Made by a program: the position numbers and the translations under genes
Source: a virus
Length of the DNA stretch: 64,000 nucleotides
IMG/VR virus record: IMGVR_UViG_3300037511_000475
Reading direction: 5' to 3' (one strand)
The notes under the pieces: model-generated
Told to the model about the DNA's origin: nothing
The model's database searches: none
Seen by the model: the letters and a program-made list of their open reading frames with translations, nothing else
In this document: positions 554 to 57,005 of the stretch, piece after piece
Layout: every line of letters begins with the position of its first letter
How positions within the stretch are numbered: the stretch's first letter is position 1

Positions 554-572
554 TGTATTGAAATAGAATACA
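554..572. promoter_or_regulatory. palindromic operator, motif A
   Basis: TGTATTG AAATA GAATACA. Confidence 0.75.
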
Positions 573-621
573 AAAATTGTAGCATAGCACAGAGATGGGG
601 GGCGATCGCCCCTAGTTGTGT

Positions 622-640
622 TGTATTGATGTCTGATACA
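622..640. promoter_or_regulatory. palindromic operator, motif A
   Basis: TGTATTG ATGTC TGATACA. Confidence 0.7.
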
Positions 641-656
641 CTTTAAACGCCAAGTT

Positions 657-1250
657 GTGTCTAGATCCCTGCTGATGGCTAACAGTACAACCCAGATGTC
701 ACGTCAACGAATCCCGTATACAGACGCCCAGATCCGGGGCATGAAAATCGTCGCTCAAATCCTGAAACAAGCCAGAACCCGTGAAGGCTGGTCTTTTCGT
801 GAATGCGCTGAGATTATTGGCGATCGCGCCGGGTATACATTTAACCATTCCAGGGTTCAACGCTTTGAGCGGGCAGGCACAGTCGTTGATAAGCGAACAC
901 AAGTAACGGAGGCCATAAATCCGCTGTACCTCAAAACAATACAGCCACTCACCCCTTACCCTTTAACGACATTAAAGGAGCTGTACGACGGCGAACTAAT
1001 AGATCTGTTTGATGAGGAGTCACCCGTGCTAGGAGCACTGATAGAACAAAAAGAAGATGAATTAGGTTCTCAGAAATTCCGGGCTGAATGCAAACGCCTT
1101 GGTTTGACCGAAGAAGAAATTATCGAAGCAAAGAAAGGCAACCTTTTATCAGGCAAGGTAATGATCGCTCTATCTTCCCTATTAAAGGTTCCCACGGATG
1201 AAGTGCAGCTAGCTGCACTTGCGCAACTAAACAACAACCTCGACAGTTAA
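657..1250 (+). CDS. XRE-family HTH regulator, candidate phage repressor, probably two HTH domains
   Basis: N-terminal LKQARTREGWSFRECAEIIG...HSRVQRFE HTH; second HTH-like segment at C-terminus; no S24 peptidase domain; two operators upstream. Confidence 0.75.
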   Translation: MSRSLLMANSTTQMSRQRIPYTDAQIRGMKIVAQILKQARTREGWSFRECAEIIGDRAGYTFNHSRVQRFERAGTVVDKRTQVTEAINPLYLKTIQPLTPYPLTTLKELYDGELIDLFDEESPVLGALIEQKEDELGSQKFRAECKRLGLTEEEIIEAKKGNLLSGKVMIALSSLLKVPTDEVQLAALAQLNNNLDS

Positions 1251-1266
1251 AGTTTTTGAAAGAGAA

Positions 1267-1310
1267 TCGACACAGCTAAATTAAGCACCCTGTTGATTAA
1301 GCTGTGTCGA
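1267..1310. terminator. long hairpin between convergent genes
   Basis: TCGACACAGCT...AGCTGTGTCGA, 11-bp perfect arms with an extendable inner stem. Confidence 0.6.
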
Positions 1311-1330
1311 TGCACTATCAGCGATTCAGC

Positions 1331-1588
1331 CTAATTGAAATCCGCCATTGGGCAGAGAACTTGCCGAGCGGTTTGATATAAATTACTAGCATGGCGATGC
1401 TTCGCAATGTCTATTGTTGTCATTAATTCTTCGCCCCAGTAAACGTCTATCAAATTGATTGATTTTTGCATTGCTTCCTGTTCAGCAGCAGGATACATTC
1501 GGTCAAAGTCGTCGAGGCAGTTTAGGTTCAGGGAGAACCTTCGTTGATGCGATTCGGACAGAGACATTTGTTCGAGCGGAGGTTTCAA
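1331..1588 (-). CDS. hypothetical protein, start uncertain
   Basis: ORF track; same strand as neighbouring operon. Confidence 0.4.
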   Translation of the reverse strand: MKPPLEQMSLSESHQRRFSLNLNCLDDFDRMYPAAEQEAMQKSINLIDVYWGEELMTTIDIAKHRHASNLYQTARQVLCPMADFN

Positions 1589-1690
1589 ATCATAATATTA
1601 ACGTTAATCTCCGTGGAAGACTAGCGACTTGCACGGAGATTAACACGGAGTTTATGTTAGTTTTAATTCCCTTGCGGAAGAGATCATTTG

Positions 1691-2086
1691 CTAGCGAGCC
1701 ACTAACTGTTTCTTGCTCTCCCAGCGAATAACCTTTAGGCTAGCCTGGATCCCTTGCCTGTAAATCCATTCAGTTGCATCAATCTGATTCCCAAACAGCA
1801 TCGGAACCCTGCACCCGTGTTCCAGGATCCCCACATCATTGATCAGTGATTCTTCGTACTCGCCGTCATCCGTATGTAATGCGATCGCCCATTGAACATT
1901 GACGCCTTTGATACTTTTAGAAACCCGATTTTCCATCAGGCCAAAAATTAGATCCCCATGGGGGGCATCGATTGACCTGGGCACCCCATCAATAATTAGC
2001 CAAACGCGATTATCAGCTAATTTTTCGATATAGCTAACTTTATTTAGGTCGATGAGGCGATCGCCAACTTGGTAGAGGTTCGTCAT
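1691..2086 (-). CDS. hypothetical protein
   Basis: 131-aa ORF, protein-like composition. Confidence 0.65.
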   Translation of the reverse strand: MTNLYQVGDRLIDLNKVSYIEKLADNRVWLIIDGVPRSIDAPHGDLIFGLMENRVSKSIKGVNVQWAIALHTDDGEYEESLINDVGILEHGCRVPMLFGNQIDATEWIYRQGIQASLKVIRWESKKQLVAR

Positions 2087-2121
2087 GGTTTTAGTTCCTG
2101 GTAGTTTAAAAACTTTGTGAG

Positions 2122-3000: not shown

Positions 3001-3019
3001 TGTATTGTAATTCAATACA
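3001..3019. promoter_or_regulatory. palindromic operator, motif A (perfect)
   Basis: TGTATTG TAATT CAATACA, 4 nt before terL ATG, between divergent genes. Confidence 0.85.
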
Positions 3020-3023
3020 ACCT

Positions 3024-4496
3024 ATGCGGGCAATCCCTATTCTTAAAAATTCCGTGAAGGGTGCGATCGCGCCTCCTGCTGTTGAGTCTGGGTACAGGCT
3101 GCCTGATCCTCAGCCAGGTGGTCAGACTATATTTGCGTCTACAGATGCCGATATAGCTATATTTGGGGGCGCGGCAGGAGCGGGCAAGAGCCTTTCGTTG
3201 CTTTGCGATGCAGCTAAGTACATCGACAATCCTAAATATGGTGCTGTAATTTTTCGCGTAACGTCGCCTGAGATCACTAATGAAGGTGGCTTATGGGATG
3301 AATCCAAGGGCTTGTACACGGAACTGGGAGGGCGCGATCGCGAACATCTTTTAGATTGGCGGTTTCCCTCTGGTTCAGCTATCAGCTTTGGGCATACAGA
3401 CAAGCTCAAACAAAAATATCCAGGTGCCCAGATTGCGTACATCGGCCTGGATGAACTTGCATCTGAAGGTTGGACTTCTGATCTGTTCTGGTTCCTGCTA
3501 TCCCGTAACCGTTCAACCAGTGGGGTAAAACCTGTTGTACGGGCAACGTGCAACCCTAACGCTGATTCCTTCCTGGCTGACTTAGTGGCATGGTGGATTG
3601 ACCAAGAAACAGGCTACCCCATCCCAGAACGGCGCGGTGTAATCCGTTGGCTGTACCGAATTTCAGAAGAGATTTTCTGGGGTGATACCAAGGAGGAATT
3701 AGAAGAGAGGTTTCCTGAACAGGCGGCGATCGCCCCACCCAAAAGCTTCACGTTCATTTACGGCACCATCTACGAGAATAAGGCCTTACTAGATGCCAAT
3801 CCGCAATATCTAGCAAACCTGCTGGCACTGCACCCTGTCGAAATGGAGCGGCTGTTAAAAGGGAACTGGAAGGTGCGTTTCGAGGCGGGAACTATTTTCA
3901 ACCGCAATTGGTTTGAAGTAGTGGACTGGCTGCCAGGTGGCGCAGAGCTTTGCAAAGTCAGGTTCTGGGATTTCGCCTCTACTGCTGCATCGATGGCAAC
4001 CAGCACCAGTTACTATTCCGCTTCAACCAAGTGGGTGCGGATTGGGGATATTGATTACATCCTTGATTGCTACTGGGAACAGGTTGGAGGCGGGAATGAT
4101 GATTCAGTTAAAACCCTGGCTGAACAGGACGGTGCAGGCTGGTTGACTCGCTGGGAACTTGAAGGCGGTAGCGCTGCCAGTCGTTACGAAGCCCGATTGC
4201 AGGAAGACTTAGCAGGCTTTGATGCTTGCGGGGTTAAGCCATTAGGGGACAAGGTAACCAGGGCTATCCCCTGGGCACGACGGGCGCAGCAGGGCAAAAT
4301 TAAACTATTGCGTGGTGCGTGGAACGATCAGTTTCTATCCGCTGTCCACAACTTTGATGGTAAAAAAAGACCGCTTATCAACGATATTGTTGATAGCGGT
4401 TCTGGTGCTTATTCAGTTATTGAGGCAGAGGTTAGGCGATCGCCCGTTAGCCCTCCGATGGTTGGATCTAAGAAGTTGGCTAAGTTTGCGGGTTAG
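3024..4496 (+). CDS. terL: terminase large subunit
   Basis: Walker A GGAAGAGKS, Walker B YIGLDEL, motif III ATCNP, C-terminal RNase H-like RFWDFA...NDIVD. Confidence 0.93.
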   Translation: MRAIPILKNSVKGAIAPPAVESGYRLPDPQPGGQTIFASTDADIAIFGGAAGAGKSLSLLCDAAKYIDNPKYGAVIFRVTSPEITNEGGLWDESKGLYTELGGRDREHLLDWRFPSGSAISFGHTDKLKQKYPGAQIAYIGLDELASEGWTSDLFWFLLSRNRSTSGVKPVVRATCNPNADSFLADLVAWWIDQETGYPIPERRGVIRWLYRISEEIFWGDTKEELEERFPEQAAIAPPKSFTFIYGTIYENKALLDANPQYLANLLALHPVEMERLLKGNWKVRFEAGTIFNRNWFEVVDWLPGGAELCKVRFWDFASTAASMATSTSYYSASTKWVRIGDIDYILDCYWEQVGGGNDDSVKTLAEQDGAGWLTRWELEGGSAASRYEARLQEDLAGFDACGVKPLGDKVTRAIPWARRAQQGKIKLLRGAWNDQFLSAVHNFDGKKRPLINDIVDSGSGAYSVIEAEVRRSPVSPPMVGSKKLAKFAG

Positions 4497-4740
4497 GGGC
4501 GATCGCTTTTAGTACGCAATCCATTGCAGCCCTAAGATGCTCTTGATCGGTTGGATATTCCGCTATTTGAGCGAGTCTTGACTGCATCAAGCTTGTCTGA
4601 ATTGTTGGGAACCGCATCATCATATGTTCCTTGCATCCTTCAGCGTGAAGGGCGATCGCCTCATACCTGCATTGAGACTGTTTCGTTACAACATTTGCAA
4701 GAAACGCTACAAGTTGTATCAGTGCCTCTTTTTCATCCAT
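4480..4740 (-). CDS. hypothetical protein
   Basis: ORF track 4480..4806; ATG at 4740 (MDEKEAL) preferred. Confidence 0.55.
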   Translation of the reverse strand: MDEKEALIQLVAFLANVVTKQSQCRYEAIALHAEGCKEHMMMRFPTIQTSLMQSRLAQIAEYPTDQEHLRAAMDCVLKAIAPNPQT

Positions 4741-4966
4741 TGCGATCGCTCTTGCCCTTCGGCATAACTCCACTTGCCAAATACCAAATTGTTTTAGGCC
4801 ATCCAATCACCCTGGCTGCATCGGAAGCACACAGCCAAATCAAATACAGGAAACGACGCAGATTAAATAACTCAGGACTTGCAGCCAGCATCTTAGCTTC
4901 AGTCTTGTTCCGTTTCACTCTAAGCGTGATAGCGATCGCCTCTTCTTCAGTAACCCTCATAATCAC
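4733..4966 (-). CDS. hypothetical protein
   Basis: 77-aa ORF in a tightly packed minus-strand operon. Confidence 0.55.
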   Translation of the reverse strand: MIMRVTEEEAIAITLRVKRNKTEAKMLAASPELFNLRRFLYLIWLCASDAARVIGWPKTIWYLASGVMPKGKSDRNG

Positions 4967-4967
4967 C

Positions 4968-5174
4968 TCAATAGATTGGATTGAATCCTGGGACGTGCCT
5001 GCGTAGTGCGGCGATCGCCCTCCGTTTTGCCGTCAACAATTCAGGTTCAGGATTTGGCCCAATATGGCTGATTACCTGTTCGCGTTGCTGATGGGTAAGC
5101 CTTGCAAACTGCTCTGGCTCAAGCAGTTTTAGAAGGCTGTCATGGTCAAATGCACGTTCATTCATGGGAAACAC
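4968..5174 (-). CDS. hypothetical protein
   Basis: 68-aa ORF in the same operon. Confidence 0.55.
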   Translation of the reverse strand: MFPMNERAFDHDSLLKLLEPEQFARLTHQQREQVISHIGPNPEPELLTAKRRAIAALRRHVPGFNPIY

Positions 5175-5199
5175 TTCAACTCTCCGGACTGGTTAGGCG

Positions 5200-5757
5200 T
5201 TACGCAGTGACTTTTGGCTTCAATCTCTTCACCCAGTCCCACGCATCTTTTTTGCGTAACCGGACAGGCATAATCACACCCGTCACGGCAAAATCACCGC
5301 GATCGCCCGTGGAACAGAACTTAACCATAGTTTCAGCGTCAATAATGTCAAAACTGATAAACCCTTGTGTCGCGATCGCGGCTTCACAAATTTGCTTTAG
5401 ATAGTGCGGGTCAAAGGTGATCTTGCTGCCTTCCTGCGTAGAGATAACCTCAGCAAAGTCCTTGCCTTCGCCTTCAGCATCGCACCACAACTCAACATAT
5501 TCAATGTCATACTCGCATGTGCCCAGTTCGGCAGGTGACAGCATTGCAATCCGATCATCATTGATGTCTTCATCAAAATCTTTGCAAACAGCAGATTTAA
5601 CACGCTCAATCCGCATTAATAACGCGCCATCCGTAGAAGAGATAGAGCCTTTGCCAATATGGATTTTCTTGAATTGATCGGGTAACGACATTTTGCCGGA
5701 TGCCGACAAAGCAACCCACTGCAAAACTTTCAGCAATTTACTTGGAACCGTGCTCAT
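5200..5757 (-). CDS. DNA sliding-clamp (DnaN)-like truncated protein
   Basis: SSTDGALL resembles clamp ATDGHRL; ITFDPHYLKQI and GVIMPVRL resemble the clamp C-terminal motifs. Confidence 0.55.
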   Translation of the reverse strand: MSTVPSKLLKVLQWVALSASGKMSLPDQFKKIHIGKGSISSTDGALLMRIERVKSAVCKDFDEDINDDRIAMLSPAELGTCEYDIEYVELWCDAEGEGKDFAEVISTQEGSKITFDPHYLKQICEAAIATQGFISFDIIDAETMVKFCSTGDRGDFAVTGVIMPVRLRKKDAWDWVKRLKPKVTA

Positions 5758-6154
5758 GTTTGACAAATCTCCATTTTTCAAGTTGTTCTTTATCGCGTAA
5801 ATCACATGATTTCCGCCATTCAATCAAGGCAACCAAGGCCAAATCAAAACTCATTCCCTGCACCTGGCTGTCCTTTTCACCTCTTGAAAGCACCATCCAA
5901 GGCAAGTCAGCCGAAAAACGGTAGATGCAACCGATATACTCATCCGGTTTGCCATTGCCACACAAATAGATATCGTGATGGCTCATAAACGGCGCTTCTT
6001 CGGCATCTGCATCGCAAAAGTGGTTTACATCGAAATCACCATGCCGATAATGCTTTGCATCCAGCAGGGTGCGAGCTTTCCATGCGGGCACAGAAGGGGC
6101 GATCGCCCTCTCCGCTGGTGCATCTCTGAATAGATCAAGCTGCGCTATCATCAC
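5738..6154 (-). CDS. hypothetical protein
   Basis: 138-aa ORF coupled to the resolvase gene. Confidence 0.6.
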   Translation of the reverse strand: MMIAQLDLFRDAPAERAIAPSVPAWKARTLLDAKHYRHGDFDVNHFCDADAEEAPFMSHHDIYLCGNGKPDEYIGCIYRFSADLPWMVLSRGEKDSQVQGMSFDLALVALIEWRKSCDLRDKEQLEKWRFVKHEHGSK

Positions 6155-6704
6155 TCAACTCCAGCGATCGCTCTGTCAGCAACTTCGCGGCGTGCATCAT
6201 CAGCACAGCTTCAGCCCGGTTATGATTCCGGGCATACTTGCCATTGCGTGACTTGTAGAAAATCTGATCTCTGATAGATGGGTAGAGTTTGATAGCCAGG
6301 GCGATCGCCTGCTCTTCGTCACTCCCCACAATCCCCAGCACCGATCGCCATTGCGCTGGCACTGCATTAATCACCCCTACGCCATGAACCAGCAAAAGCG
6401 TCTTCACCGCTTCATGGCTACGAATGAGCCCTTCTGCGCTCGCCATCTTGCTGGTATCGCGGCTATCAATGTGAACCTGCTCAACCAGGGCGATCGCCCT
6501 CTGCTTTCCAATCCTTTGACTGATAATTTTGTTAAGAGCTACCGAGTCATGCTGATAGAACGAATAGCGCCCTACCTGCCGTTTTTCGGGCAATGTAGGC
6601 ACCCCATGTAGATGCACCGTCCCATCCGGCATCAAAAACGAAAGTACCCCGGAACTACTGCCAGGGTCGAAACCTACGTAAATTGTGGAATTAGCTGATT
6701 TCAT
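6135..6704 (-). CDS. RuvC-like Holliday junction resolvase
   Basis: YVGFDPGSSSG, ALVEQV, NHNRAEAVLM acidic catalytic pattern. Confidence 0.85.
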   Translation of the reverse strand: MKSANSTIYVGFDPGSSSGVLSFLMPDGTVHLHGVPTLPEKRQVGRYSFYQHDSVALNKIISQRIGKQRAIALVEQVHIDSRDTSKMASAEGLIRSHEAVKTLLLVHGVGVINAVPAQWRSVLGIVGSDEEQAIALAIKLYPSIRDQIFYKSRNGKYARNHNRAEAVLMMHAAKLLTERSLELSDDSAA

Positions 6705-6765
6705 GTTTAGGTAAAAGGCGATCGCACAAAGGAATAAGCGATCGCCTTGAGGTTGTTCACCTGAA

Positions 6766-6784
6766 TGTATTGTATTTCAATACG
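6766..6784. promoter_or_regulatory. palindromic operator, motif A
   Basis: TGTATTG TATTT CAATACG upstream of resolvase operon. Confidence 0.8.
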
Positions 6785-6794
6785 CTCTAGACGG

Positions 6795-7103
6795 TCAAGA
6801 ATCTTCTTTATCACGGCACAGATCACCGTTATCAGGGGTGAAGTTGTAAGCGTAAATTCGCTTCTGTAGCCGTCTTCGCATGTTCACATCTGCCCACCAT
6901 TGGCCCTTACACTGCTCACACTTGCAGTAGGTAGCATCTAAGCCAGGAATGGCTGAGCGCACCACGTAGGCCGTCTCTGCCTCTGTCCATCGTGGCTTCA
7001 GGAGTAGCTTGATAATGTCACACCCTTGATTGTTGGACTCGCCCGTGAGAGTGGTGTAGGGGCGATCGCACGAAGGTGCTTCGATTGGTTTAGATCTTGC
7101 CAT
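6795..7103 (-). CDS. hypothetical Cys-containing protein
   Basis: 102-aa ORF with CKCEQC. Confidence 0.6.
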   Translation of the reverse strand: MARSKPIEAPSCDRPYTTLTGESNNQGCDIIKLLLKPRWTEAETAYVVRSAIPGLDATYCKCEQCKGQWWADVNMRRRLQKRIYAYNFTPDNGDLCRDKEDS

Positions 7104-7131
7104 TTTCAGGGTGAACTCTTCACATATATAT

Positions 7132-7150
7132 TGTATTGTAAATCAATACA
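7132..7150. promoter_or_regulatory. palindromic operator, motif A (perfect)
   Basis: TGTATTG TAAAT CAATACA between divergent genes. Confidence 0.85.
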
Positions 7151-7179
7151 ATATAGATAGGTATTTAGAGGTTAAAGCT

Positions 7180-8379
7180 ATGAAGTATGCGAGCTCGATA
7201 AAGTTTCGCGGGCAATTAGTGGAGGCGATCGCCTGTGACTACGATGATTACAAGCGTTTAGGGCTACTGTGCCCAGTCTGCAAAGATCCGGTTTACTTGC
7301 GGAAAGATTCAGCCAGGGTGCAGGGCGATCGTACGGTCACTATTCCTGCCTGCTTCTGTCATTTCCCCAGCACTGATCCTGAACTTGCTAAGGCCTGTGA
7401 GAACCGTGTGGCAGGCTACACACAGGAAGAAGTGGAGAAGGCTAGGGCGATCGCACGTAATCAGCGATTGAAACTGTTGCAGCGTTGGTTTTGGGATATT
7501 GTTTCCCGGTATTTTATAGAAGGAGTGCGCAACAACGTAAAAGCTGAGATAGAAGCCAGTGAACTTTTTGTTCCTATTGTTCAGGCACAATCTAACGAAA
7601 CTTGCCCCGCGCCTGATGAACATTGGGCCGTAACTGAAAAAAAATCAATTTACATGAAAGCCGCAAAGCATTTGGGCGGAAAGTTTGCCGATGAAATTTG
7701 GGGTGGGTCGCTTGAATCTTTAATCGATTTTTTTGTTGATGGATGGAGCAAAGGGAATATTCCGATGATAAAGGGGCAGCATACCGCAAACATTTCGCTA
7801 TCCTCAGCCGACTTTGGTTTCTTGGGACGAATTAAACCGTCTCGGTTTGACTGGGAGATGCAAAAGCTAATATGCAAAGAAGTAATGTCATTCCTCTGCG
7901 CCAAGAGACAAAGGCAAATGCTTCAGACCCTTGTAGCCTGCGAGATGGGCGAAGCTACGTTGAAAGCAAAAGAAGGTGCATGGATCGCGGGCGTAAACAT
8001 TGACCGTGATGGAGTTGGAACTATAACAGCAGAAGGATGGGCGTCTCTAACAAAATTTGCCCGCGCAAATATTACGCAGCTAATCTGTGCGATTCCATGG
8101 GCTGACGAGTTTGAGCGTATCGGAGAGCCCACCACAAAAACTGCCGGAAAGAAGACGCGATACTATTTGCACGGCGATCGCCACGAAGTCAAGCCAAAAC
8201 AATACTACTGCGCTGCGTGCGACCTATTTGCACCGTTAGAGCATTTCTACAAAACAGGCGATTGCCACTGCAAAGACCACTATCAACGCTACCTAAAGAG
8301 CCAAGACACATGGAAAACCGTTTACGCTTCAAACCCTAACTATTACCGTCCAAAGGGAGCTGTAAGCCATTTCGCGTAA
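7180..8379 (+). CDS. protein with CoiA-like N-terminal zinc finger and a second C-terminal Cys cluster
   Basis: LLCPVCKDPVYLR...CFCHF...ACENR; C-terminal YCAACD...CHCKDH; ATG at 7180 preferred over 7111. Confidence 0.6.
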   Translation: MKYASSIKFRGQLVEAIACDYDDYKRLGLLCPVCKDPVYLRKDSARVQGDRTVTIPACFCHFPSTDPELAKACENRVAGYTQEEVEKARAIARNQRLKLLQRWFWDIVSRYFIEGVRNNVKAEIEASELFVPIVQAQSNETCPAPDEHWAVTEKKSIYMKAAKHLGGKFADEIWGGSLESLIDFFVDGWSKGNIPMIKGQHTANISLSSADFGFLGRIKPSRFDWEMQKLICKEVMSFLCAKRQRQMLQTLVACEMGEATLKAKEGAWIAGVNIDRDGVGTITAEGWASLTKFARANITQLICAIPWADEFERIGEPTTKTAGKKTRYYLHGDRHEVKPKQYYCAACDLFAPLEHFYKTGDCHCKDHYQRYLKSQDTWKTVYASNPNYYRPKGAVSHFA

Positions 8380-8400
8380 GCGATTGCTCCACTTCCTCTT

Positions 8401-8430
8401 AAGCCCTGCCATCAACGGCAGGGCTTTTTT
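8401..8430 (+). terminator. intrinsic terminator
   Basis: GCCCTGCC-ATCAAC-GGCAGGGC-TTTTTT. Confidence 0.85.
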
Positions 8431-8431
8431 A

Positions 8432-8590
8432 TTAGCCAGTGAGGCACTAGTCATCCCTACTTCTTTAATACACTTTTCATTACTACCCTCCCCCCCCTAT
8501 TATTTATTTTTTATTTTTAATCTCTATATTGAGGTGGGTAATGTAGAGGGTACTGAAGTAAAGCTAAATCAAGAGCTTCAGGGCTTCTAC
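8432..8590 (-). repeat. origin-like dispersed element, copy 1 (inverted, most diverged)
   Basis: Reverse complement CATTACCCAC...AAAATAAAAAATAAA...TAGGGGGGG... matches the cores at 43.8 and 51.9 kb; lies just past the primase-helicase stop. Confidence 0.65.
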
Positions 8591-8798: not shown

Positions 8799-8817
8799 TG
8801 GCTTGATATTCAATACA
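8799..8817. promoter_or_regulatory. operator motif A, CAAGCC half-site variant
   Basis: TGGCTTG ATATT CAATACA. Confidence 0.65.
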
Positions 8818-8830
8818 GCTAAGACGTGCT

Positions 8831-11581
8831 TTAGAGCAGTCTTAGCTCTGTGATTGGATAGGAACCGTAAAAGGTATCACCTTCAATTGTTGCTGTTGTG
8901 CAGTTTACGGAAACTACAACGCCGGAACCCTTGGAGCACTGAACTTTATCACCTGGCTTGTATTTGAATACGGTATGACCATTGGAAGCAACGGGTACAA
9001 GCTCTTTTTGTTCAGTTTCTGGTGGTATTGGCGGCGGTTCTGGTGGTGCAATAGGGGCGATCGCTTCAGTTGTAAGTGATGAGGCAAAAGCTATGCCCTC
9101 AATGCCTTTGCGGTTGTTGCCAATTGATACCAGTTTTGCCCGTGGAAACAACTTGGATATACGGTTAAAAATTTGGTTAGCACCCTTAACGTAAGGATCC
9201 CCAGGTCTTACATCGTTATCCCATACCCGGTTGCCGTGAATGTCAATCTTGAGAATCGGGGTATCTCCAGCCTTGTAAAACTCTTCAAGCTTGTCCCACA
9301 GATCCTTGACAGGAATAACGTTGTTTTTGTCGGCAACAAGATTGTAGGTTTTGGAGAACTCAAACAGGTGACTGTTTACGGATTGGGCTTCCTCTAGTGC
9401 AGCATCGCAGCAACTATAATCAATCCCCTCTTCCATCAAGGCCCGGAATGCATCCATGATTTTGTTAAGGAATGCAGGAAGGATATTGACTTGAATGAAG
9501 TCCTTAGAGTACTTGAATCTCGGATCCGCTTCAATCTCTCCGAGTTCTGGATTTGCTCCAATCTTGAAAGTTTTCAGGAAAGAAACGATCGCGAATCTGG
9601 ATTTAATGGCCTCCATCCCAGCTTTAATATTGGGGGTGTGGTTGATATTAAAGATGTGTACCGCTTTTGGGGTGAATGGTTCCGGGTCAACGCCTTTGCG
9701 TTCTAAGTGAAGTTCATCGCCTGAGATTGCTTGCTTTAATGCCTCTGAAGAGTCGAGGTTGACATCCTTTTTGTTTTCACTAGACCAATTTATTCGACTA
9801 CCAGGCAAAGGTATTAAAGTAAATTTTCGCCCTCCGTCATAGCCTGCAAAGTCCTGCGTACCCAATGATGTCATTCCGGTTCTCCCCCACAAAAGAGAAA
9901 CTGTTTCCCTGAGTGAGTCTTTACCATTGCTTCCATCACCGTAAGCCAATAAAGCTTTGATCCGCCCGTGTCGCTCTCTAACCTTTTCAACGTCTAGTGC
10001 AGCGGCGATCGTCCTCAAAAATACTTGCTGTTGTGGCTTGTCCAGGGCAGACAACAGGCGATCGCAATCCTCAGCATAAGCATCTGGGTTGTACTCAACC
10101 AGCGGCTCATACAGGTAATACATATCAGGTGAGTGAGGAATGAAGTTGAAGATGGGTGTGCGATCGCTGTAGGAAATCTGCAATACCCCATTCTTGCAAT
10201 TCAGCCCAGGCGGGTTGCATTTGTCGATAGACACGGCATTTAAGACCTTTACCCAGTCAAGCGCCTGATTTACCTTTTGGCGGCTTGCGTAAGGATATGT
10301 CTTTTCATAAATTGGGTTGCCGTTCTCATCCTTTGCCCTTGTCTTTTTAATTACGCAGGTTTCATCAGCCAATTTAGCAATGCGCTTTTCCTCAACCTCA
10401 TCAGGGCAATACTCGTAATGAGTTCCAGTCCATCGGTATAACTTGCTAGTAACGGAAATGTATCTGGTATCAGAGTAAAGCTTTCGTGCTGTAATCTGCG
10501 GAAAATCTCGCTTTACATGCTTTTCATCTTCCTCTGATTCAACCTCTTTTACTGGCTCATCATAAATAGCCTTTGGTCGTGGTGCGATCGCCTCATACTC
10601 TGCCAACGTCAAAAACTTGATAGCTTCACCGTCCAATTCATCGCAGTCGGGGAAGTCTTTTGTCTCTTGTCCCCACCATGCAATTTTCACGTTGTAACCC
10701 ATGTGCCGAACCAGATCTAGTGTCTGGTAGTCACGGCGCAAAACCTTGTCATTATCGATCGCCCCTGCATCTGGGTAGAAGATTATTTCCTGGCTACCAA
10801 TCTCAGCCGACAGCTTTTCAAGCGTTGATGCCAGCAGCCTGGATGAAGCAGAGAAATTGCCGCCAGATGCACCCACAAACACGCACCCTAAGCCCTGTGC
10901 AGCAATCCATGGCTTAAGGATGCCTTCTGCCAGTGCGATCGCCTTCACCTTCCCCTTTAGAGGTCGAGCAACAGTAATAGGCAGTTCACCCATGATGTGA
11001 GGTGTAACCCCTTCCGGACTTTTCTTGGTGCGGCTCGTAAGCCAACGGTAACGGCCTGCATCACTAGGCTGATTCAGTCGTAACTGAATGCCAATAATCA
11101 ATCCGCTACTGTTAAACGCAGGGCACAGGTAGCCATCTGCCGGAATATTTAGATTACGGCCTCCCTTCAGCACCCCTGGTAGCCGTTCATCAAATTCAGC
11201 TTTCAACCCCTGCCATTGCTTGACGGAACGGAATAAGCCAGCCTCGATCTGTTCTTCGGTAAGCCCTCGATCAAGTAAATCGGCTTTGTCACGATCCAAA
11301 AGAGTTAATTCAGACAACATTTGCCGATGAAGGCGATCGCGCTCCGACGCAGACAGGGACGTATCATTCAACTCTAACTCTGACTGCCGCGGCGATCGCT
11401 CCGGTGCAAACATTCCCCAAACTCCATCAGAGGTGATTCCGTTAAAATGCCAGCCAGTAGGAGCATCCTTTTGGCTGAGGATTTCCATGCATAGCTGCCC
11501 TCGCTCCGTTGTGCGACACTTACCAGATTCGTTGTTGCAGATTGGGCAGGGGTGATACTTGCTAGAAGGTGTGAGTGGCAT
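8831..11581 (-). CDS. phage/plasmid primase-helicase (Zn ribbon, TOPRIM-like primase, D5-like SF3 helicase)
   Basis: HPCPICNNESGKC; ALAEGILKP/FYPD/DFPDCDE; Walker A GDGSNGKDS; INWSSEN; FNIN. Confidence 0.9.
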   Translation of the reverse strand: MPLTPSSKYHPCPICNNESGKCRTTERGQLCMEILSQKDAPTGWHFNGITSDGVWGMFAPERSPRQSELELNDTSLSASERDRLHRQMLSELTLLDRDKADLLDRGLTEEQIEAGLFRSVKQWQGLKAEFDERLPGVLKGGRNLNIPADGYLCPAFNSSGLIIGIQLRLNQPSDAGRYRWLTSRTKKSPEGVTPHIMGELPITVARPLKGKVKAIALAEGILKPWIAAQGLGCVFVGASGGNFSASSRLLASTLEKLSAEIGSQEIIFYPDAGAIDNDKVLRRDYQTLDLVRHMGYNVKIAWWGQETKDFPDCDELDGEAIKFLTLAEYEAIAPRPKAIYDEPVKEVESEEDEKHVKRDFPQITARKLYSDTRYISVTSKLYRWTGTHYEYCPDEVEEKRIAKLADETCVIKKTRAKDENGNPIYEKTYPYASRQKVNQALDWVKVLNAVSIDKCNPPGLNCKNGVLQISYSDRTPIFNFIPHSPDMYYLYEPLVEYNPDAYAEDCDRLLSALDKPQQQVFLRTIAAALDVEKVRERHGRIKALLAYGDGSNGKDSLRETVSLLWGRTGMTSLGTQDFAGYDGGRKFTLIPLPGSRINWSSENKKDVNLDSSEALKQAISGDELHLERKGVDPEPFTPKAVHIFNINHTPNIKAGMEAIKSRFAIVSFLKTFKIGANPELGEIEADPRFKYSKDFIQVNILPAFLNKIMDAFRALMEEGIDYSCCDAALEEAQSVNSHLFEFSKTYNLVADKNNVIPVKDLWDKLEEFYKAGDTPILKIDIHGNRVWDNDVRPGDPYVKGANQIFNRISKLFPRAKLVSIGNNRKGIEGIAFASSLTTEAIAPIAPPEPPPIPPETEQKELVPVASNGHTVFKYKPGDKVQCSKGSGVVVSVNCTTATIEGDTFYGSYPITELRLL

Positions 11582-11657: not shown

Positions 11658-11676
11658 TGGATTCTATTACAATACG
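11658..11676. promoter_or_regulatory. operator motif A
   Basis: TGGATTC TATTA CAATACG upstream of primase. Confidence 0.6.
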
Positions 11677-11876: not shown

Positions 11877-11895
11877 TGGCTTGAAATACAATACA
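11877..11895. promoter_or_regulatory. operator motif A, CAAGCC half-site variant
   Basis: TGGCTTG AAATA CAATACA; paired GTTAACA repeats at 11849-11872 lie between it and the RHH gene. Confidence 0.7.
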
Positions 11896-18542: not shown

Positions 18543-18827
18543 CTATTTCCCTTCGGTGATGGACTTGTGTTTGCGATCGCTATCCGGCTTTTCAATCTCA
18601 GCCAAAAGCTCAATGGATGACGGCTCAATCATCCCGTGTGTACCAATGCCCTGATCTTGTTTCCAGGCACTAAAAGCAGCAACCGTTTTAAGACCTACAG
18701 CCCCATCAATATCTGCCTCTTCTAGATATCCACCCCTGACTAACTGTTGCTGCACCCACGTAACGTTAGGGTGTGGCAACAGGTCTAAGCGAATAGGGTT
18801 TTTGAGAGTGGGCTTAGGTGCCATCAA
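18543..18827 (-). CDS. peptidoglycan-binding domain protein with no catalytic domain
   Basis: VTWVQQQLVRGGY...IDGAVGLKTVAAFSAWKQDQGIGTHGMI matches PG_binding_1. Confidence 0.75.
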   Translation of the reverse strand: MMAPKPTLKNPIRLDLLPHPNVTWVQQQLVRGGYLEEADIDGAVGLKTVAAFSAWKQDQGIGTHGMIEPSSIELLAEIEKPDSDRKHKSITEGK

Positions 18828-19105
18828 AACAAATCTCTGATTTTTCTCGAATTAACTAAAGCTTGAAATAACCGCAATTCCGTAACCGTTGGCTGTGCCC
18901 GTCCTCTCTCCCAATCAGAGATCCGTTGCTGCGAGATATTCTCCGCGCCACGGTGCTTCATGGCGATCGCCAATTGCTGTTGCGTAAAACGCGCTTCAGC
19001 ACGGGCCTGTCGAATAGTTTCAGCAACCTGATCGGCTCCCTTGTGCCGTTCCAAATACACTCGTTGCCGTGCCGTAAATTCAAATTGTTGTAGATCCTCT
19101 TGCAT
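18824..19105 (-). CDS. XRE-family HTH regulator
   Basis: IRQARAEARFTQQQLA...SQQRISDWERGRAQP. Confidence 0.88.
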   Translation of the reverse strand: MQEDLQQFEFTARQRVYLERHKGADQVAETIRQARAEARFTQQQLAIAMKHRGAENISQQRISDWERGRAQPTVTELRLFQALVNSRKIRDLF

Positions 19106-19143: not shown

Positions 19144-19162
19144 CGTATTGTATATCAAGCCT
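19144..19162. promoter_or_regulatory. operator motif A, CAAGCC half-site variant
   Basis: CGTATTG TATAT CAAGCCT. Confidence 0.65.
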
Positions 19163-20418: not shown

Positions 20419-20437
20419 TGTATTGAAATACAGGACA
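20419..20437. promoter_or_regulatory. operator motif A
   Basis: TGTATTG AAATA CAGGACA, 5 nt before ATG. Confidence 0.65.
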
Positions 20438-27013: not shown

Positions 27014-27371
27014 ATCAACCCGGTGGAACCCTCCCAAAATCCCCAAAATTACAGCTAGTTTCTTATGGGATGTGGATTACGCAGCAGAAGTACACGAACA
27101 CCCGGAAAGACCGCGCCCATGGGTAGACGTAACATTAGCTGATTTCGATATATGCGATCGCTTCCGTGAGAATTACAAGGGACTGAATACGATAGATGTA
27201 TGTTTTTTCAATACAATGGATGAGTTAGGGGATGAGTTTACTTTAACGATTGATGAGTATGAGTGGAACTACACTTCTACCAATCGGAAAAGACACATCC
27301 CTGAATACACCTGGCGAACGATCACTGATTCCGGTGATTTAGCCGACTCACTAACCATCACTTATTCCTGA
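27006..27371 (+). CDS. neck / tail completion protein (HK97 gp10-like)
   Basis: C-terminal RTITDSGDLADSL resembles the DTGxLxxS motif. Confidence 0.5.
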   Translation: MVRSTRWNPPKIPKITASFLWDVDYAAEVHEHPERPRPWVDVTLADFDICDRFRENYKGLNTIDVCFFNTMDELGDEFTLTIDEYEWNYTSTNRKRHIPEYTWRTITDSGDLADSLTITYS

Positions 27372-39003: not shown

Positions 39004-39022
39004 TGTATTGAAATAAGATACA
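39004..39022. promoter_or_regulatory. operator motif A inside an extended hairpin between convergent genes
   Basis: CTCTGATGTATTG AAATA AGATACATCAGAG. Confidence 0.6.
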
Positions 39023-39707: not shown

Positions 39708-39726
39708 TGTATTGTAATAGAATACA
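39708..39726. promoter_or_regulatory. operator motif A
   Basis: TGTATTG TAATA GAATACA upstream of HNH. Confidence 0.75.
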
Positions 39727-41320: not shown

Positions 41321-41339
41321 TGTATTGTAATACGATACA
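41321..41339. promoter_or_regulatory. operator motif A
   Basis: TGTATTG TAATA CGATACA upstream of thyX-like gene. Confidence 0.8.
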
Positions 41340-44339: not shown

Positions 44340-44358
44340 CGTATTGCTTATCAATACG
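44340..44358. promoter_or_regulatory. operator motif A (perfect, C-G outer pair)
   Basis: CGTATTG CTTAT CAATACG. Confidence 0.8.
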
Positions 44359-44505: not shown

Positions 44506-44524
44506 TGTATTGAATTGCAAGCCA
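44506..44524. promoter_or_regulatory. operator motif A, CAAGCC half-site variant
   Basis: TGTATTG AATTG CAAGCCA, 1 nt before gpI ATG. Confidence 0.7.
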
Positions 44525-49173: not shown

Positions 49174-49192
49174 TGGCATGTATTTCAATACA
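49174..49192. promoter_or_regulatory. operator motif A variant
   Basis: TGGCATG TATTT CAATACA upstream of terS. Confidence 0.6.
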
Positions 49193-51109: not shown

Positions 51110-51234
51110 TGGTCACTCTCCTGCTCATCCTGGATGCTATCTATTGCCCCTACAGTACGCCCTAGCATACAGATGAGGGAAAGGACGGCGATCGCCCCTA
51201 CTACGCCTACAGCGGCAACGAACAGCCAAATCAT
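51106..51234 (-). CDS. small single-TM peptide (42 aa, not in ORF track)
   Basis: MIWLFVAAVGVVGAIAVLSLICMLGRTVGAIDSIQDEQESDQ; ATGA overlaps on both sides. Confidence 0.6.
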   Translation of the reverse strand: MIWLFVAAVGVVGAIAVLSLICMLGRTVGAIDSIQDEQESDQ

Positions 51235-51425
51235 AAGACACTGCTGCCAGGATTCATCTTCCGTAAACATGCCCTGGTTGCAAAATTCAAGTCTACAGCG
51301 GCGATCGCCAACTCCCTCAACTTCTCAATATCGCTGGCAGCCTTAATCTCATTCACAATCTGCTGACGGTGTAGAGCCATCTCAAGTGGTAAATCAGAGG
51401 CCAAAACATTCAGGGGTGTGTCCAT
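51231..51425 (-). CDS. NblA-like phycobilisome degradation adaptor
   Basis: 64 aa; LPLE resembles the NblA L(S/T)LE start; helix-loop-helix hydrophobic pattern matches NblA as recalled. Confidence 0.55.
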   Translation of the reverse strand: MDTPLNVLASDLPLEMALHRQQIVNEIKAASDIEKLRELAIAAVDLNFATRACLRKMNPGSSVL

Positions 51426-51451: not shown

Positions 51452-51470
51452 AGTATTGCATATCAATACA
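51452..51470. promoter_or_regulatory. operator motif A
   Basis: AGTATTG CATAT CAATACA upstream of nblA-like gene. Confidence 0.75.
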
Positions 51471-51693: not shown

Positions 51694-52060
51694 GTGAAAA
51701 CTGACTAACCCTTGAGGTAAACGGGCGATCGCCCTACCCCGTATAGCTTTCAGCCGATTTCCTTGTGCCCTCCCAAAAAGGCAAACACTTGTACCCTAAT
51801 AAACTGACTCAGGGCGTGAAACCCTTATTATTCCGTCTTTCCTCTTTTCTTTATTAGTCACATTACCCACTTAGTCATATAGATAAGAAAATAAAAAATT
51901 AAATGTAGATAGGGGGGGGATAGAAAGTAGAAATATATATATAAGGTATAGGGCTGATCTGCCTAAGTGACTAACTTAAGAGGCTGAAACCCTTGTCCTG
52001 TATGGACGGAGTCACTTCATTACCCTGTCGAACGTAGACTAATTTGGGTTAGGCAGTTTT
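51694..52060 (+). repeat. origin-like dispersed element, copy 3
   Basis: AAACCCTTATTA..TTATTAGTCACATTACCCA..ATAAAAAA..TAGGGGGGG..ATCTGCCTAA.TGACTAACTTAA..GGAGTCACTT..TTAGGCAGTTTT shared with copy 2. Confidence 0.85.
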
Positions 52061-52133
52061 GGTGCGCGATGAAAAACCCCCTACCAGTTAAGGCAGGGGG
52101 TGTGATGGGGTTGGTAGTGATTGGGCGATCGCT

Positions 52134-52952: not shown

Positions 52953-52971
52953 TGTATTGAAATACAAGCCG
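52953..52971. promoter_or_regulatory. operator motif A, CAAGCC half-site variant
   Basis: TGTATTG AAATA CAAGCCG upstream of Bro-N gene. Confidence 0.75.
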
Positions 52972-53428: not shown

Positions 53429-53710
53429 CTAAGCCTCAACAAACAACCCGTCAAACGCATCCAGGTCAATCGGCTCAGAGAAATCGAGTTCATTGGCTTC
53501 AGCGATCGCCAGGTTGTGAACTACCGCAATAACCTTGTCCTTATCGGTATCGTTCCATAGTTCTGTGTTGTTGGAGTCGTAGCCAAAGTAGCGATCGCCC
53601 TTCTTCTGCACCGAGTAACCCAGCGTGGCAGCAACGCCTTTTAGCTGGACAAATTCAGACTCCTCGAACAGGGCATCAAACTCAGCAATTTGTTGTGCAG
53701 TGAATTCCAT
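53429..53710 (-). CDS. acidic hypothetical protein
   Basis: 93 aa, D/E-rich termini. Confidence 0.7.
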   Translation of the reverse strand: MEFTAQQIAEFDALFEESEFVQLKGVAATLGYSVQKKGDRYFGYDSNNTELWNDTDKDKVIAVVHNLAIAEANELDFSEPIDLDAFDGLFVEA

Positions 53711-53728: not shown

Positions 53729-53747
53729 TGTGTTCTATTTCAATACA
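53729..53747. promoter_or_regulatory. operator motif A variant
   Basis: TGTGTTC TATTT CAATACA. Confidence 0.6.
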
Positions 53748-54790: not shown

Positions 54791-55055
54791 AGTTACCCGT
54801 CACCTGAATGATGCGCCTGTGCCTGCTGGCATGGCACGCAATTCACGTTTTACCCACGGTGTAAAGATTCAGCCAGAGCCGCCTATGAGTTATGAGTGGA
54901 GGGTTGAGGAGGTTATCAAAGTAACGGCTACCTATGGTTTTACTGACTGCCTTTACGCTGACTCCTTCACAGTGTTCTGGACTGAGGGCGAAGTTACGGA
55001 TCAAGAGTTAGCCGCAATTAGTAAAGCGTTGGAGAGCGATCGCACCAATGGTTAA
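54783..55055 (+). CDS. hypothetical protein
   Basis: MYKVTRHL... 90 aa. Confidence 0.6.
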   Translation: MYKVTRHLNDAPVPAGMARNSRFTHGVKIQPEPPMSYEWRVEEVIKVTATYGFTDCLYADSFTVFWTEGEVTDQELAAISKALESDRTNG

Positions 55056-55205
55056 ACCTAGTCAATCGGCGTTAGAGAAACTGAATACTTTGCCAAGATT
55101 GCTGCTGGACTGGAACGTGTCAACCAACGACCCGAAATGGGGTGAAATCGTAGACGAAATTACGCGGATCAAGGTTTTAGTTGAAAACATTGGAGGCGAT
55201 CGCCC

Positions 55206-55712
55206 GTGACACCAGAACCAGTTGAAGTGGCAGCAGCAATCGAAGTTGCAGTTAAGTTACTGCAAAGTGTTTTGCCCGCAGGGACAGACGCATGGGTGAC
55301 GGTTGCCAAACTTGAAAACGACGCGTACACCGTAGAAGCTGATTTTACGGATGCAGAAGATTACCTTGAGTGGGCCAACGAAAACTTTGTAGAACACACC
55401 CCAATCACACCACGGGTACAGCAGGACATCGCCCGACAGAAGCATCGCCCAGGGTGCGATCGCCTCCTATCCCTACTACACCAACGCACAGAAAAAGGCA
55501 TCCAAGAATACGGCAGGCCACTCCGAACCAATGATGGACACGATTTCCTGACTCACCTAACCGAAGAATTAGCTGATGCCACGCAATACACCATGGGTGC
55601 ATTGATGGATATGGAGTTACAGGGGGGCGATCGCTCTAAACTCCAACGCATCTACAGCAGCCTACTGGATGCAGCTCTGACCGTTGAAGAAATGCGGATG
55701 AATCGCGAATAA
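55206..55712 (+). CDS. protein with MazG-like all-alpha NTP pyrophosphohydrolase domain
   Basis: RTEKGIQEYGRPL...FLTHLTEELADATQY. Confidence 0.55.
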   Translation: MTPEPVEVAAAIEVAVKLLQSVLPAGTDAWVTVAKLENDAYTVEADFTDAEDYLEWANENFVEHTPITPRVQQDIARQKHRPGCDRLLSLLHQRTEKGIQEYGRPLRTNDGHDFLTHLTEELADATQYTMGALMDMELQGGDRSKLQRIYSSLLDAALTVEEMRMNRE

Positions 55713-55725
55713 AGTTCGCCTGTAC

Positions 55726-55744
55726 TGTATCCTATATCAATACA
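55726..55744. promoter_or_regulatory. operator motif A variant
   Basis: TGTATCC TATAT CAATACA. Confidence 0.65.
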
Positions 55745-55759
55745 CTGGGAGAACCCAAA

Positions 55760-56239
55760 ATGTGTGATGAATCCGAAGAGTTTTACGCGTTGTTGCATCG
55801 AGTGAACTTCAGCAAAAACTGGTTAGCCCTTGATTTATGGATGGCTTCCGAGCTTTGCGACCAGTCCCTAGAAAACGACCACGCTGAAGCCCTTGCAACC
55901 TGGATGTTGGACAGCAAGCAGAGTGACCACGAAGCCATGAAGCAAGCGCTAGGGGTTAATGATTACGGCAAGTTGTTGGTAGAGCGGGCGATCGCTCGGA
56001 TTAATGGAACTACAGAGGCGATCGTTTCTCAGGCTTTTGGGATGGCATCTCAAGCTGTAGAGGATAACGCAACCGTAGACGTTGAGCTGGAAATGTCTAC
56101 CTGTGCCCAGATTGCTTTGTTTATGCATCGGCAATGGCAAGAGGCAGGCACCTCTATGCCTTTCACTGAATGGCTCAACGAGATTATGTGGAGCCAACCG
56201 GGCACGGTTCTAATTACTGAAGCGGAGGGCGATCGCTAA
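55760..56239 (+). CDS. hypothetical protein
   Basis: 159-aa ORF. Confidence 0.7.
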   Translation: MCDESEEFYALLHRVNFSKNWLALDLWMASELCDQSLENDHAEALATWMLDSKQSDHEAMKQALGVNDYGKLLVERAIARINGTTEAIVSQAFGMASQAVEDNATVDVELEMSTCAQIALFMHRQWQEAGTSMPFTEWLNEIMWSQPGTVLITEAEGDR

Positions 56240-56556
56240 TGGCATGGAAATACTGGAAAGGTGAGCATGGGCACTGGTTCATCGAAGACCCCGACTCTGG
56301 CGTCACACTGATGAGCTGCGGCCTATTTGCAGAGCGTGAATGGGTAGCATTGCAAGTGTGCTGCTATCTGAACGGGCAAGGGATGCAGGGGACTTGGTGG
56401 CTAGAACTGCGGGTTGGTGATTACTTCCTTTGCTGCCCTAATCATGGATGTGTCATTGCACATTCACTAACTGATGACATGACAGAGTACCTATCAACAA
56501 ACAAACTCATGCCTCAGATGTTTCGAGGCTTTGAAGATAGAAGCGATCGCCCTTAA
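56239..56556 (+). CDS. hypothetical Trp/Cys-rich protein
   Basis: 105-aa ORF, TAATG overlap. Confidence 0.6.
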   Translation: MAWKYWKGEHGHWFIEDPDSGVTLMSCGLFAEREWVALQVCCYLNGQGMQGTWWLELRVGDYFLCCPNHGCVIAHSLTDDMTEYLSTNKLMPQMFRGFEDRSDRP

Positions 56557-56571
56557 CCACCCACAAACACC

Positions 56572-56946
56572 ATGACTTACACACAAATCAAACCACGGCA
56601 GCCGATCGCCCTCACCCAGAAAAACCTGAAAGCCTACGAATGGATACGCACTTACATGGAGTTGAGTGGAGGGCGATCGCCCTCCGTCCGAGAAATTATG
56701 AAGGGACTCAAACTCAAAAGCCCTGCACCCGTTCAGGCTCATCTACGACGTTTAAGAGAGGCTGGTTACATAACCTGGCTAGACGGTCAGACACGCGCTC
56801 TAAAGCTCACCAATGAGCCAGGGTATGTCATCCCACCCGCTAACGCAGCCATCGTTGCCGCCAAACTGCAAGCACTGGCAAAGCGATCGCCCATCAGAAT
56901 CAAGTCTGAGCTACTGGCGATCGCACAGGAGCTACAAGCCTCTTAA
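56572..56946 (+). CDS. LexA DNA-binding-domain protein without the peptidase domain
   Basis: LTQKNLKAYEWI...SPSVREIMKGLKLKSPAPVQAHLRRLREAGYITWLDGQTRAL; only about 40 aa follow. Confidence 0.88.
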   Translation: MTYTQIKPRQPIALTQKNLKAYEWIRTYMELSGGRSPSVREIMKGLKLKSPAPVQAHLRRLREAGYITWLDGQTRALKLTNEPGYVIPPANAAIVAAKLQALAKRSPIRIKSELLAIAQELQAS

Positions 56947-56986
56947 CCAAGAATTACCTAATTTTCACATTTCCCTATTGTCAAAC

Positions 56987-57005
56987 TGTATTGAAATACA
57001 ATACA
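56987..57005. promoter_or_regulatory. operator motif A (perfect)
   Basis: TGTATTG AAATA CAATACA. Confidence 0.85.

Follow-up and report, generated by a model that had tools for sequence, protein, structure and literature searches.

A 19-bp palindrome repeated across the genome of an uncultured soil cyanobacterial phage and its probable role as an operator site

Introduction

Master regulators that act at many dispersed sites are already known from mycobacteriophages, phage P1, and Streptomyces phage phiC31. The C1 repressor of P1 and the repressor of phiC31 each use about 17 to 20 dispersed sites, which serve many unrelated units; the conserved inverted repeats of phiC31 are palindromic and intergenic, and the P1 operators are asymmetric. 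To our knowledge, very little work has addressed how temperate or plasmid-like cyanophages regulate their genes, and an easily recognized operator in such a phage would provide a map of its regulatory architecture and a short list of proteins. Here, we analyzed a 64,000-nucleotide stretch (the window) of IMG/VR virus record IMGVR_UViG_3300037511_000475, which derives from a soil metagenome and represents an uncultured soil cyanobacterial phage. The source contig is 79,361 bp long, and no RNA run was found to contain this DNA. Our subject was the palindrome TGTATTG-N5-CAATACA, which an earlier note on this DNA had listed at 21 positions. That observation was confirmed and extended.

Two groups of mycobacteriophages provide the closest comparisons. 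The operators and stoperators of Cluster A phages (L5 gp71, Bxb1, and TipsytheTRex) are asymmetric 13-bp sites that are bound by a monomer and whose orientation follows transcription (PMC9283540, PMC6550527). Cluster O phages carry a 17-bp dyad repeat, TGTTCGG-N3-CCGAACA; Corndog has 34 copies, the arms do not vary among them, and the binder is unknown (PMC4351075).

Like the Cluster A sites, the palindrome in the window was present in more than 20 copies genome-wide, was located at promoters and in short intergenic gaps of both early and late regions, and varied in sequence between related phage lineages. Unlike the Cluster A sites, it was a 19-bp palindrome without orientation bias, its host was cyanobacterial, and scans with PHROGs and Pfam yielded only generic helix-turn-helix (HTH), ribbon-helix-helix (RHH)-like, and LexA-domain proteins, although no direct comparison with gp71 was made. 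With the Cluster O repeat it shared 7-bp inverted arms (TGT...ACA), a short spacer, tens of copies located mainly in the gaps between open reading frames (ORFs) or where ORFs end, and a gene with a copy on each side, which suggested a role in gene flux. It differed from that repeat in its sequence, in having 3 perfect copies among 23, in its constrained 5-bp spacer (versus 3 bp), and in its recurrent second class of half-site. By analogy, then, the anatomy of the palindrome appears closest to the Cluster O repeats, and its apparent regulatory logic matches that of the Cluster A stoperators. The sequences and proteins of P1 and phiC31 differ from those in the window. The palindrome is best classed with the multi-copy operator sites already known from phages.

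Results

The repeated unit is a 19-bp palindrome

The exact pattern TGTATTG-N5-CAATACA was found three times in the window (at 3001, 7132, and 56987), compared to 0.00 times in 100 shuffles. When up to three mismatches were allowed, there were 29 matches in the window and 2.77 were expected from the shuffles. All 21 positions listed earlier bore the motif; 3 copies were perfect, 17 had one to three mismatches, and the copy at 19144 had four. A symmetric weight matrix with a score of at least 15 bits gave 24 matches, which corresponded to 23 distinct sites, versus 0.1 in shuffles. The matrix scan added sites at 8954 and 27197 (weak), as well as a trivial overlapping register at 52948.

When the 42 half-sites were pooled, the same 9-nt consensus (TGTATTG-W-A) was obtained on both sides, with G at position 2 in all 42 half-sites and A at position 9 in 34 of them. 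The conserved unit was therefore longer than originally stated, namely, a 19-bp palindrome with the sequence TGTATTGWAnTWCAATACA, and the 5-nt spacer was itself constrained to W-A-n-T-W. The idea that the spacer is always A/T rich held for most copies and failed for those at 622, 44340, 44506, and 51452, in which a G or C was present. Every copy conformed to GTA-N11-TAC.

A second class of half-site, which had also been proposed, proved to be real. The sequence CAAGCC/TGGCTTG was found in six copies (8799, 8954, 11877, 19144, 44506, and 52953), and CATGCC was found at 49174. In every case, the GC-type half-site TGGCTTG (CAAGCCA on the other strand) was located opposite a good consensus half. 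The GC-type halves showed no orientation bias relative to gene direction (three agreed and two disagreed), and neither did the spacer asymmetry (four agreed and three disagreed).

Sites are located at the boundaries of transcription units

Twenty-one of the 23 site centers fell outside ORFs of at least 80 amino acids, which made up 81% of the window (binomial p = 1.6e-13). This placement bore out the view that the sites are intergenic or at gene junctions. As for the two exceptions, the site at 53729 was in the 5' extension of an ORF with a TTG start, and only the site at 8954 was clearly inside a robust gene. The 23 sites were spread over about 17 intergenic gaps. Some were in divergent promoter gaps (554/622, 3001, 7132, 19144, and 53729), some headed operons or inserted genes (thyX at 41321, HNH at 39708, terS at 49174, antirepressor at 52953, 55726, and 56987), and others were at gene ends (8799, 11877, and 39004). 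Four sites were 1 to 5 nt from an ATG, as had been reported: those at 554 (minus-strand gene), 3001, 20419, and 44506.

Because sites were present at nearly every transcription-unit boundary, the best reading was that of the earlier note, that one phage-encoded regulator acts at many sites; its addition that this replaces a lambda-type cascade was not supported, for the reasons given below. On balance, we consider it likely that the 19-bp palindrome is an operator of a phage-encoded regulator with two-fold symmetry, which would be a homodimer or a dimer of dimers. The regulator is probably a global repressor.

Another way to explain sites at gene boundaries is that they are primarily boundary or recombination sequences, in which case gene cassettes (HNH, thyX, and the antirepressor gene, for example) would be gained, lost, and exchanged more readily through the shared palindromes, and protein binding would be secondary. 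We judged this to be unlikely. The HNH gene was flanked on both sides by the palindrome in the window (39004 and 39708), a site headed the thyX insertion in the tail operon, and the HNH gene of a related contig (L135; 4340-4870, minus strand) was likewise flanked by that contig's own palindrome. A Cluster O mycobacteriophage gene flanked by the 17-bp repeat is also present or absent between genomes (PMC4351075). However, 19 bp is short for homologous exchange, and recombination alone does not require lineage-specific selection, strict two-fold symmetry, or a constrained spacer. Moreover, no cassette boundary was apparent at the two conserved sites that precede the double-HTH gene (675-1250).

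Relatives retain the sites or carry lineage-specific variants

The G+C content of the window was 48.6%. The cyanobacterial HIP1 octamer, GCGATCGC, occurred 220 times (3.4 per kb), whereas the composition of the window predicts about 0.9 in total. The related contigs L135, L136, and L138 were likewise rich in HIP1. This richness suggests a long stay in a HIP1-type cyanobacterium.

The double-HTH gene had only two homologs among 5.8 billion proteins (73% and 62% amino acid identity), and both were on short Logan contigs, L133 and L134. On each contig, both sites were kept between the double-HTH gene and a divergent gene for the 119-aa protein, with start-to-start spacings of 67 and 64 bp, versus 68 bp in the window; the flanks had diverged. 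The second site still had its deviant right half, TGATACA. In total, the same sites were found at the same places in three contigs, the third being L137 (TerL, 80% identical), a 2.3-kb contig whose one site, TGTATTGTAATACGATACG, was the same motif and was 13 nt upstream of terL.

More distant relatives carried variants. In L136/L141 (TerL, 66%), we found the near variant TGTATWGAAnTTCWATACA, with 6 matches versus 0.03 expected; about 12 sites were found in total, every one of them between called genes and one of them upstream of terL. The 19-bp palindrome of L135/L140 (TerL, 70%), TGTAAGGTTnAACCTTACA, was a different one; it gave 25 strand matches in 21.5 kb, which correspond to 14 sites, and 0.4 matches were expected. 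In L135, only one of these sites was not between called genes, the terL unit had one upstream, and two flanked the HNH gene. L138 (TerL, 64%) was without such a repeat.

What the HIP1-rich phage clade shared was a length of 19 bp, the frame TGTA-N11-TACA, and intergenic placement at equivalent positions, and the inner bases of the half-site were lineage specific (TTGWA, TWGAA, and AGGTT). Lineage-specific bases in a shared frame point to a symmetric binder that is phage encoded and that may travel and co-evolve with the phage, and this combination argues against a common host factor. The three sets of inner bases form a natural specificity series within TGTA-N11-TACA, which is of added interest for the co-evolution of repressors and operators and for the origin of immunity groups.

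Outside this clade, TerL relatives in viral and genome contigs were only about 40% identical and did not carry the motif. When viral contigs were scanned for the exact pattern, the matches were single copies at the level of chance, a scan of metagenome contigs gave no HIP1-bearing relative among the matches listed, and megablast of the window against the phage collection gave no match. One contig that matched the pattern by chance was L021 (IMGVR_UViG_3300032267_000660), which is unrelated, has a G+C content of 41%, and lacks HIP1. At 4158-14050, this contig had dense arrays of TGTAA/TGTAT-based direct repeats (pentamer) just upstream of G+C-rich terminator hairpins, which is a different repeat system.

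At 4716-7598, L141 carried genes for TnpB/OrfB_IS605 and for a large serine recombinase. This finding suggests that phages of this group can be temperate.

The palindrome behaves as a DNA site

An RNA stem-loop role had been left open in the earlier note, so the copies were folded. The perfect copies allowed a 7-bp stem with a 5-nt loop, at -4.6 to -5.2 kcal/mol, and the mean of all copies was approximately -2 kcal/mol. In 8 of the 23 copies, neither strand gave a fold stronger than -1 kcal/mol, and 5 of these had no fold at all. Most deviations from the consensus broke pairs, and the six or seven GC-type copies had two internal mismatches, as expected from the remark that CAAGCC copies break the stem. 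A compensated pair was found only at 44340 (C...G), and this change would be equally tolerable to a symmetric dimer. No T-run was seen after any of the 23 sites, and an Rfam scan of the window gave no match.

Thus, a nucleic acid hairpin, whether it acts in transcript processing, as an operator of translation at the ribosome-binding site, as a weak terminator, or in single-stranded DNA, is very unlikely to be what the motif represents. Four copies were at a ribosome-binding-site position, 1 to 5 nt before the ATG, the site at 39004 was inside a longer palindrome, and several deviations were compatible with G-U pairing on the plus strand, all of which would suit a hairpin. The weak folds, broken pairs, and missing U-tract would not, and the symmetric conservation of the loop (WAnTW) is a feature of a DNA dyad. 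In addition, some copies were between divergent promoters and need not be part of either transcript. Because the folds were weak, the pairs were broken, the loop was symmetrically conserved, and neither a T-run nor an Rfam match was found, the palindrome appears to be selected as double-stranded DNA with a dyad axis. The evidence from folding and symmetry upheld the view that the sites behave as protein-binding DNA sites and not as RNA stems.

The motif itself contained TTGAAA/TTGTAA and TACAAT-like hexamers on both strands, and eight sigma-70/promoter-like matches used these hexamers or straddled or overlapped a site. This raised the idea that the palindrome is a core promoter element that supplies bidirectional -10 and -35 hexamers to host RNA polymerase, possibly with a phage factor, and is no operator. 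Such a role has very little probability in our view. The invariant outer bases (G at position 2) are outside any hexamer, copies were present at convergent gene ends, and promoter-like matches in the window overall were not above chance. The L135 variant TGTAAGGTTnAACCTTACA was also without a -10-like hexamer and yet had the same distribution, which argues against a core promoter element. A leaderless promoter at the ATG-adjacent sites was considered and dropped; bases -12 to -7 were not -10-like.

The motif is at chance level in cyanobacterial genomes

A cyanobacterial metagenome-assembled genome encoded a distant TerL relative, and we sampled 401 genomes across its phylum. The exact motif was found in 12 of the 401 genomes, once in each, and a reversed-pattern control was found in 4 of the 401, with 6 occurrences. 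The density in the window (three exact copies in 64 kb) was thousands of times above that in these genomes. With the motif at chance level, the sites were indeed specific to the phage lineage and not general cyanobacterial sites.

Two known cyanobacterial sites were also compared with the motif and rejected. The consensus of an NtcA/CRP-type site is GTA-N8-TAC, and the spacing was wrong, with N11 in every copy. The cyanobacterial LexA box AGTACWNWTGTACT was matched within two mismatches once in the window, versus 2.8 expected. This box is 14 bp long with the half-site TGTACT, and TGTATT is found in natural LexA boxes (PMC3091678). The LexA box and the phage site have in common a GTA half-site core and a TGTA(C/T)T flank, and they differ in geometry: the GTAC cores of the LexA box are 8 bp apart from center to center, and the GTAT/ATAC cores of the 19-bp phage site are 13 bp apart.

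It remains to consider whether the binder is a factor of the host, or a ParB/KorB-type silencing or partition protein of a phage-plasmid, instead of a classical phage repressor. We regard this as improbable. Partition-type proteins bind dispersed palindromes in plasmid RK2 and phage N15, the 119-aa candidate had a ParG-like predicted fold, and the 64-kb window contained no integrase. However, no ParA or ParB was detected among the approximately 100 proteins of the window and relative contigs that were scanned with Pfam or PHROGs. As noted above, TGTATT resembles the cyanobacterial LexA half-site and is found in natural LexA boxes, which would suit a host factor, but the spacing was 5 bp beyond that of the LexA box and canonical LexA boxes were not above chance. 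The exact motif was at chance level in the 401 genomes, and relatives with host-like HIP1 content used a different palindrome, which makes a single conserved host factor unlikely.

Proposed mechanism and additional control

If the palindrome is the operator of a phage-encoded repressor, the bound protein would occlude promoter elements, since the motif itself holds promoter-like hexamers, and at sites within an operon it might block elongation by RNA polymerase. Most of the phage genome could in this way be silenced or timed by one protein, and weaker half-sites of the TGGCTTG class would grade affinity or occupancy between units. What we observed was the enrichment, the exclusion from coding sequence, the symmetry, the lack of RNA-type covariation, the positional conservation, and the lineage variants; protein binding, phage encoding, and repression are our inferences.

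Several points weigh against this proposal. The recurrent TGGCTTG half-site is not accounted for by simple decay of the consensus. Several sites were at convergent gene ends or 1 nt past stop codons, positions that would be unusual for a promoter operator, and the promoter-like matches were no more frequent than chance. No candidate regulator was common to all three motif lineages in the parts of the contigs examined. Finally, the sites may instead be bound by a factor specific to the true host.

The palindrome was also not the only repeated element upstream of genes. An exact 12-mer, AAAAA(C/G)TCACGG, was found four times (13564-13575, 19125-19136, 28844-28855, and 39989-40000), 36 to 89 nt upstream of four plus-strand structural units. 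A small hairpin, ACGGCATARRCCGT, followed two of the four copies, and the copy at 19125 abutted the palindrome site at 19144. The 12-mer may be a late-promoter or activator element. In addition, palindrome sites were nearly absent from two blocks, the long structural one at 20.4-39 kb and the 7-kb one at 57-64 kb. Given the independent 12-mer before four structural units and the two nearly site-free blocks, the claim that there is no lambda-type cascade was not supported, and additional class-specific control is therefore likely.

Candidate binders

Three groups of candidate proteins were considered, and the odds that we attach to them are rough. The first is the divergent pair at 192-1250, which consists of the RHH-like 119-aa protein and the double-HTH protein. 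Two conserved sites were within the shared control region of this pair, and the putative recognition stretch of the double-HTH protein, FNHSRVQ, was invariant in both homologs that keep the same sites. We tentatively place this pair ahead, as a binder with a somewhat less than even chance. The earlier note had tentatively linked the two classes of half-site to the two HTH domains of the protein at 657..1250. This link was not supported: the consensus was strongly two-fold symmetric, which fits a homodimer, and the GC-type halves lacked orientation bias.

The second candidate is the 124-aa protein at 56572-56946, which contains a predicted LexA DNA-binding domain only; as the binder, it is possible but doubtful. 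A perfect site followed its gene, and another site headed its operon. Its recognition stretch, LKSPAPVQ, was identical to that of full-length LexA-like proteins, and the TGTATT half-site differs at a single base from TGTACT, the LexA half-site of cyanobacteria. An L136-type contig, which uses a near-identical motif, encoded a 79-aa homolog (33 to 38% identity over 65 to 90 residues, E values of 5e-10 to 7e-10), and no homologs of the RHH, HTH, and XRE candidates were seen in 26 kb of this contig. On the other side, the motif cores are 5 bp further apart than those of the LexA box.

The third possibility, which is about as doubtful as the second, is that the binder is the XRE-family protein at 18824-19105 or another or unseen protein. 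Having a site upstream of its own gene discriminates poorly among the candidates because nearly every unit has a site.

Searches for relatives of the candidates gave the following results. A viral-contig search with the LexA-domain alignment gave no match, and a word-based homolog search with the 124-aa protein recovered only the protein itself. HMMER identified many stand-alone LexA-domain proteins (75 to 160 aa) in public data, none of which was close to the 124-aa protein; two matches were inspected, and one was on a 764-bp contig and the other was a chromosomal gene. In the case of L135, a Pfam scan of the proteins beside the paired sites gave no match, and a 193-aa protein was unrelated to the double-HTH protein of the window.

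A specific and rather unlikely origin can be proposed for the 124-aa protein, namely, that it is a captured host LexA domain that has lost the self-cleaving protease and gained a new dimerizing tail, making it a RecA-insensitive master repressor. With the new tail, the distance between the two domains would exceed that in LexA by 5 bp, and TGTAT half-sites would be read in a private 19-bp geometry that is insulated from the host SOS regulon. The inner half-site positions would then have diverged between sister phages. Were the LexA-domain protein the binder, it would show a phage re-tooling a host stress regulator.

Features of the window

PHROGs and Pfam scans of the window yielded a lambda-like siphophage gene set. 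In addition to the genes in Table 1, the window encoded a primase-helicase, SSB, dCTP deaminase, a Bro-N antirepressor-like protein, and several small DNA-binding proteins.

Table 1. Palindrome sites, candidate binders, and selected genes of the window
Feature	Coordinates	Strand	Remarks
119-aa protein gene	192..551	minus	Candidate binder; RHH/ParG-like predicted fold; beside two sites; conserved in L133 and L134
Site TGTATTGAAATAGAATACA	554..572		2 nt from ATG of minus-strand RHH-like gene; first of two in divergent control region; kept in L133 and L134
Site TGTATTGATGTCTGATACA	622..640		Upstream of double-HTH gene; deviant right half TGATACA kept in relatives
Double-HTH gene (169-191 aa)	675..1250	plus	Candidate binder; two tandem XRE-type HTH domains
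Perfect site	3001..3019		Divergent region; 4 nt upstream of terL ATG
TerL	3024-4496		Packaging
Site	6766..6784		Between two minus-strand genes; upstream of Holliday-junction resolvase gene
Perfect site	7132..7150		Divergent region (6795-7103 minus, ~7180-8379 plus)
GC-type site	8799..8817		Convergent gap downstream of primase gene; adjoins inverted repeat
GC-type site	8954..8972		Within final ~41 codons of primase ORF; absent from earlier list
Site	11658..11676		Upstream of primase gene
GC-type site	11877..11895		1 nt from stop of 11897-12622 (minus)
Portal-like gene	16785-17969	minus	Packaging
93-aa XRE-family HTH protein gene	18824..19105	minus	Weaker candidate binder; one weak site over promoter-like region
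Weak GC-type site	19144..19162		Between XRE gene (minus) and protease gene (plus)
Head protease	19214	plus	
Site	20419..20437		5 nt upstream of ATG at 20443
Major head protein	21348		
Uncertain site	27197..27215		Weak left half; possibly within ORF 26958-27371
3349-aa ORF	28921-38970		Tape-measure position of tail block
Site	39004..39022		Convergent gap after 3349-aa ORF; inside longer palindrome (cctctga...tcagagg)
HNH endonuclease gene	39050-39736	minus	Two HTH domains; between giant ORF and tail-tip genes
Site	39708..39726		Upstream of HNH endonuclease gene (minus)
M/L/K/I/J-type tail-tip genes	40025-47656		
Site	41321..41339		15 nt upstream of thyX; 1 nt past preceding stop codon
thyX	41355-42170		Between two minor tail genes; overlaps start of next tail gene; site 41321 at head
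Site CGTATTG..CAATACG	44340..44358		Sole copy changed on both sides of a pair
GC-type site	44506..44524		1 nt upstream of tail assembly gene ATG (44526)
Site	49174..49192		Upstream of terS; between promoter-like TTGGCA and TAGAAT hexamers
TerS	49256		Packaging
Site	51452..51470		26 nt upstream of small minus-strand ORF 51231-51425
GC-type site	52953..52971		Between two minus-strand genes; upstream of Bro-N/antirepressor-like gene
Site	53729..53747		Divergent region; 18 nt from start of 53429-53710 (minus)
Site	55726..55744		Head of three-gene unit whose last gene is the LexA-domain gene
124-aa LexA-domain protein gene	56572..56946	plus	Candidate binder; LexA DNA-binding domain and helical tail; no S24 protease domain
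Perfect site	56987..57005		40 nt past LexA-domain gene; head of site-free 57-64 kb rightward block

Two other families of repeats were noted in the window. A non-coding direct repeat of 133 nt was present at 43878-44010 and 51944-52076 (family D8), and its two copies were 84% identical. Three 90-nt coding repeats with 68 to 73% identity (family D4; 15008-15334 and 25743-25832) were located in the genes for a 954-aa protein and a 563-aa tail protein, which suggests that these two proteins may have a domain in common.

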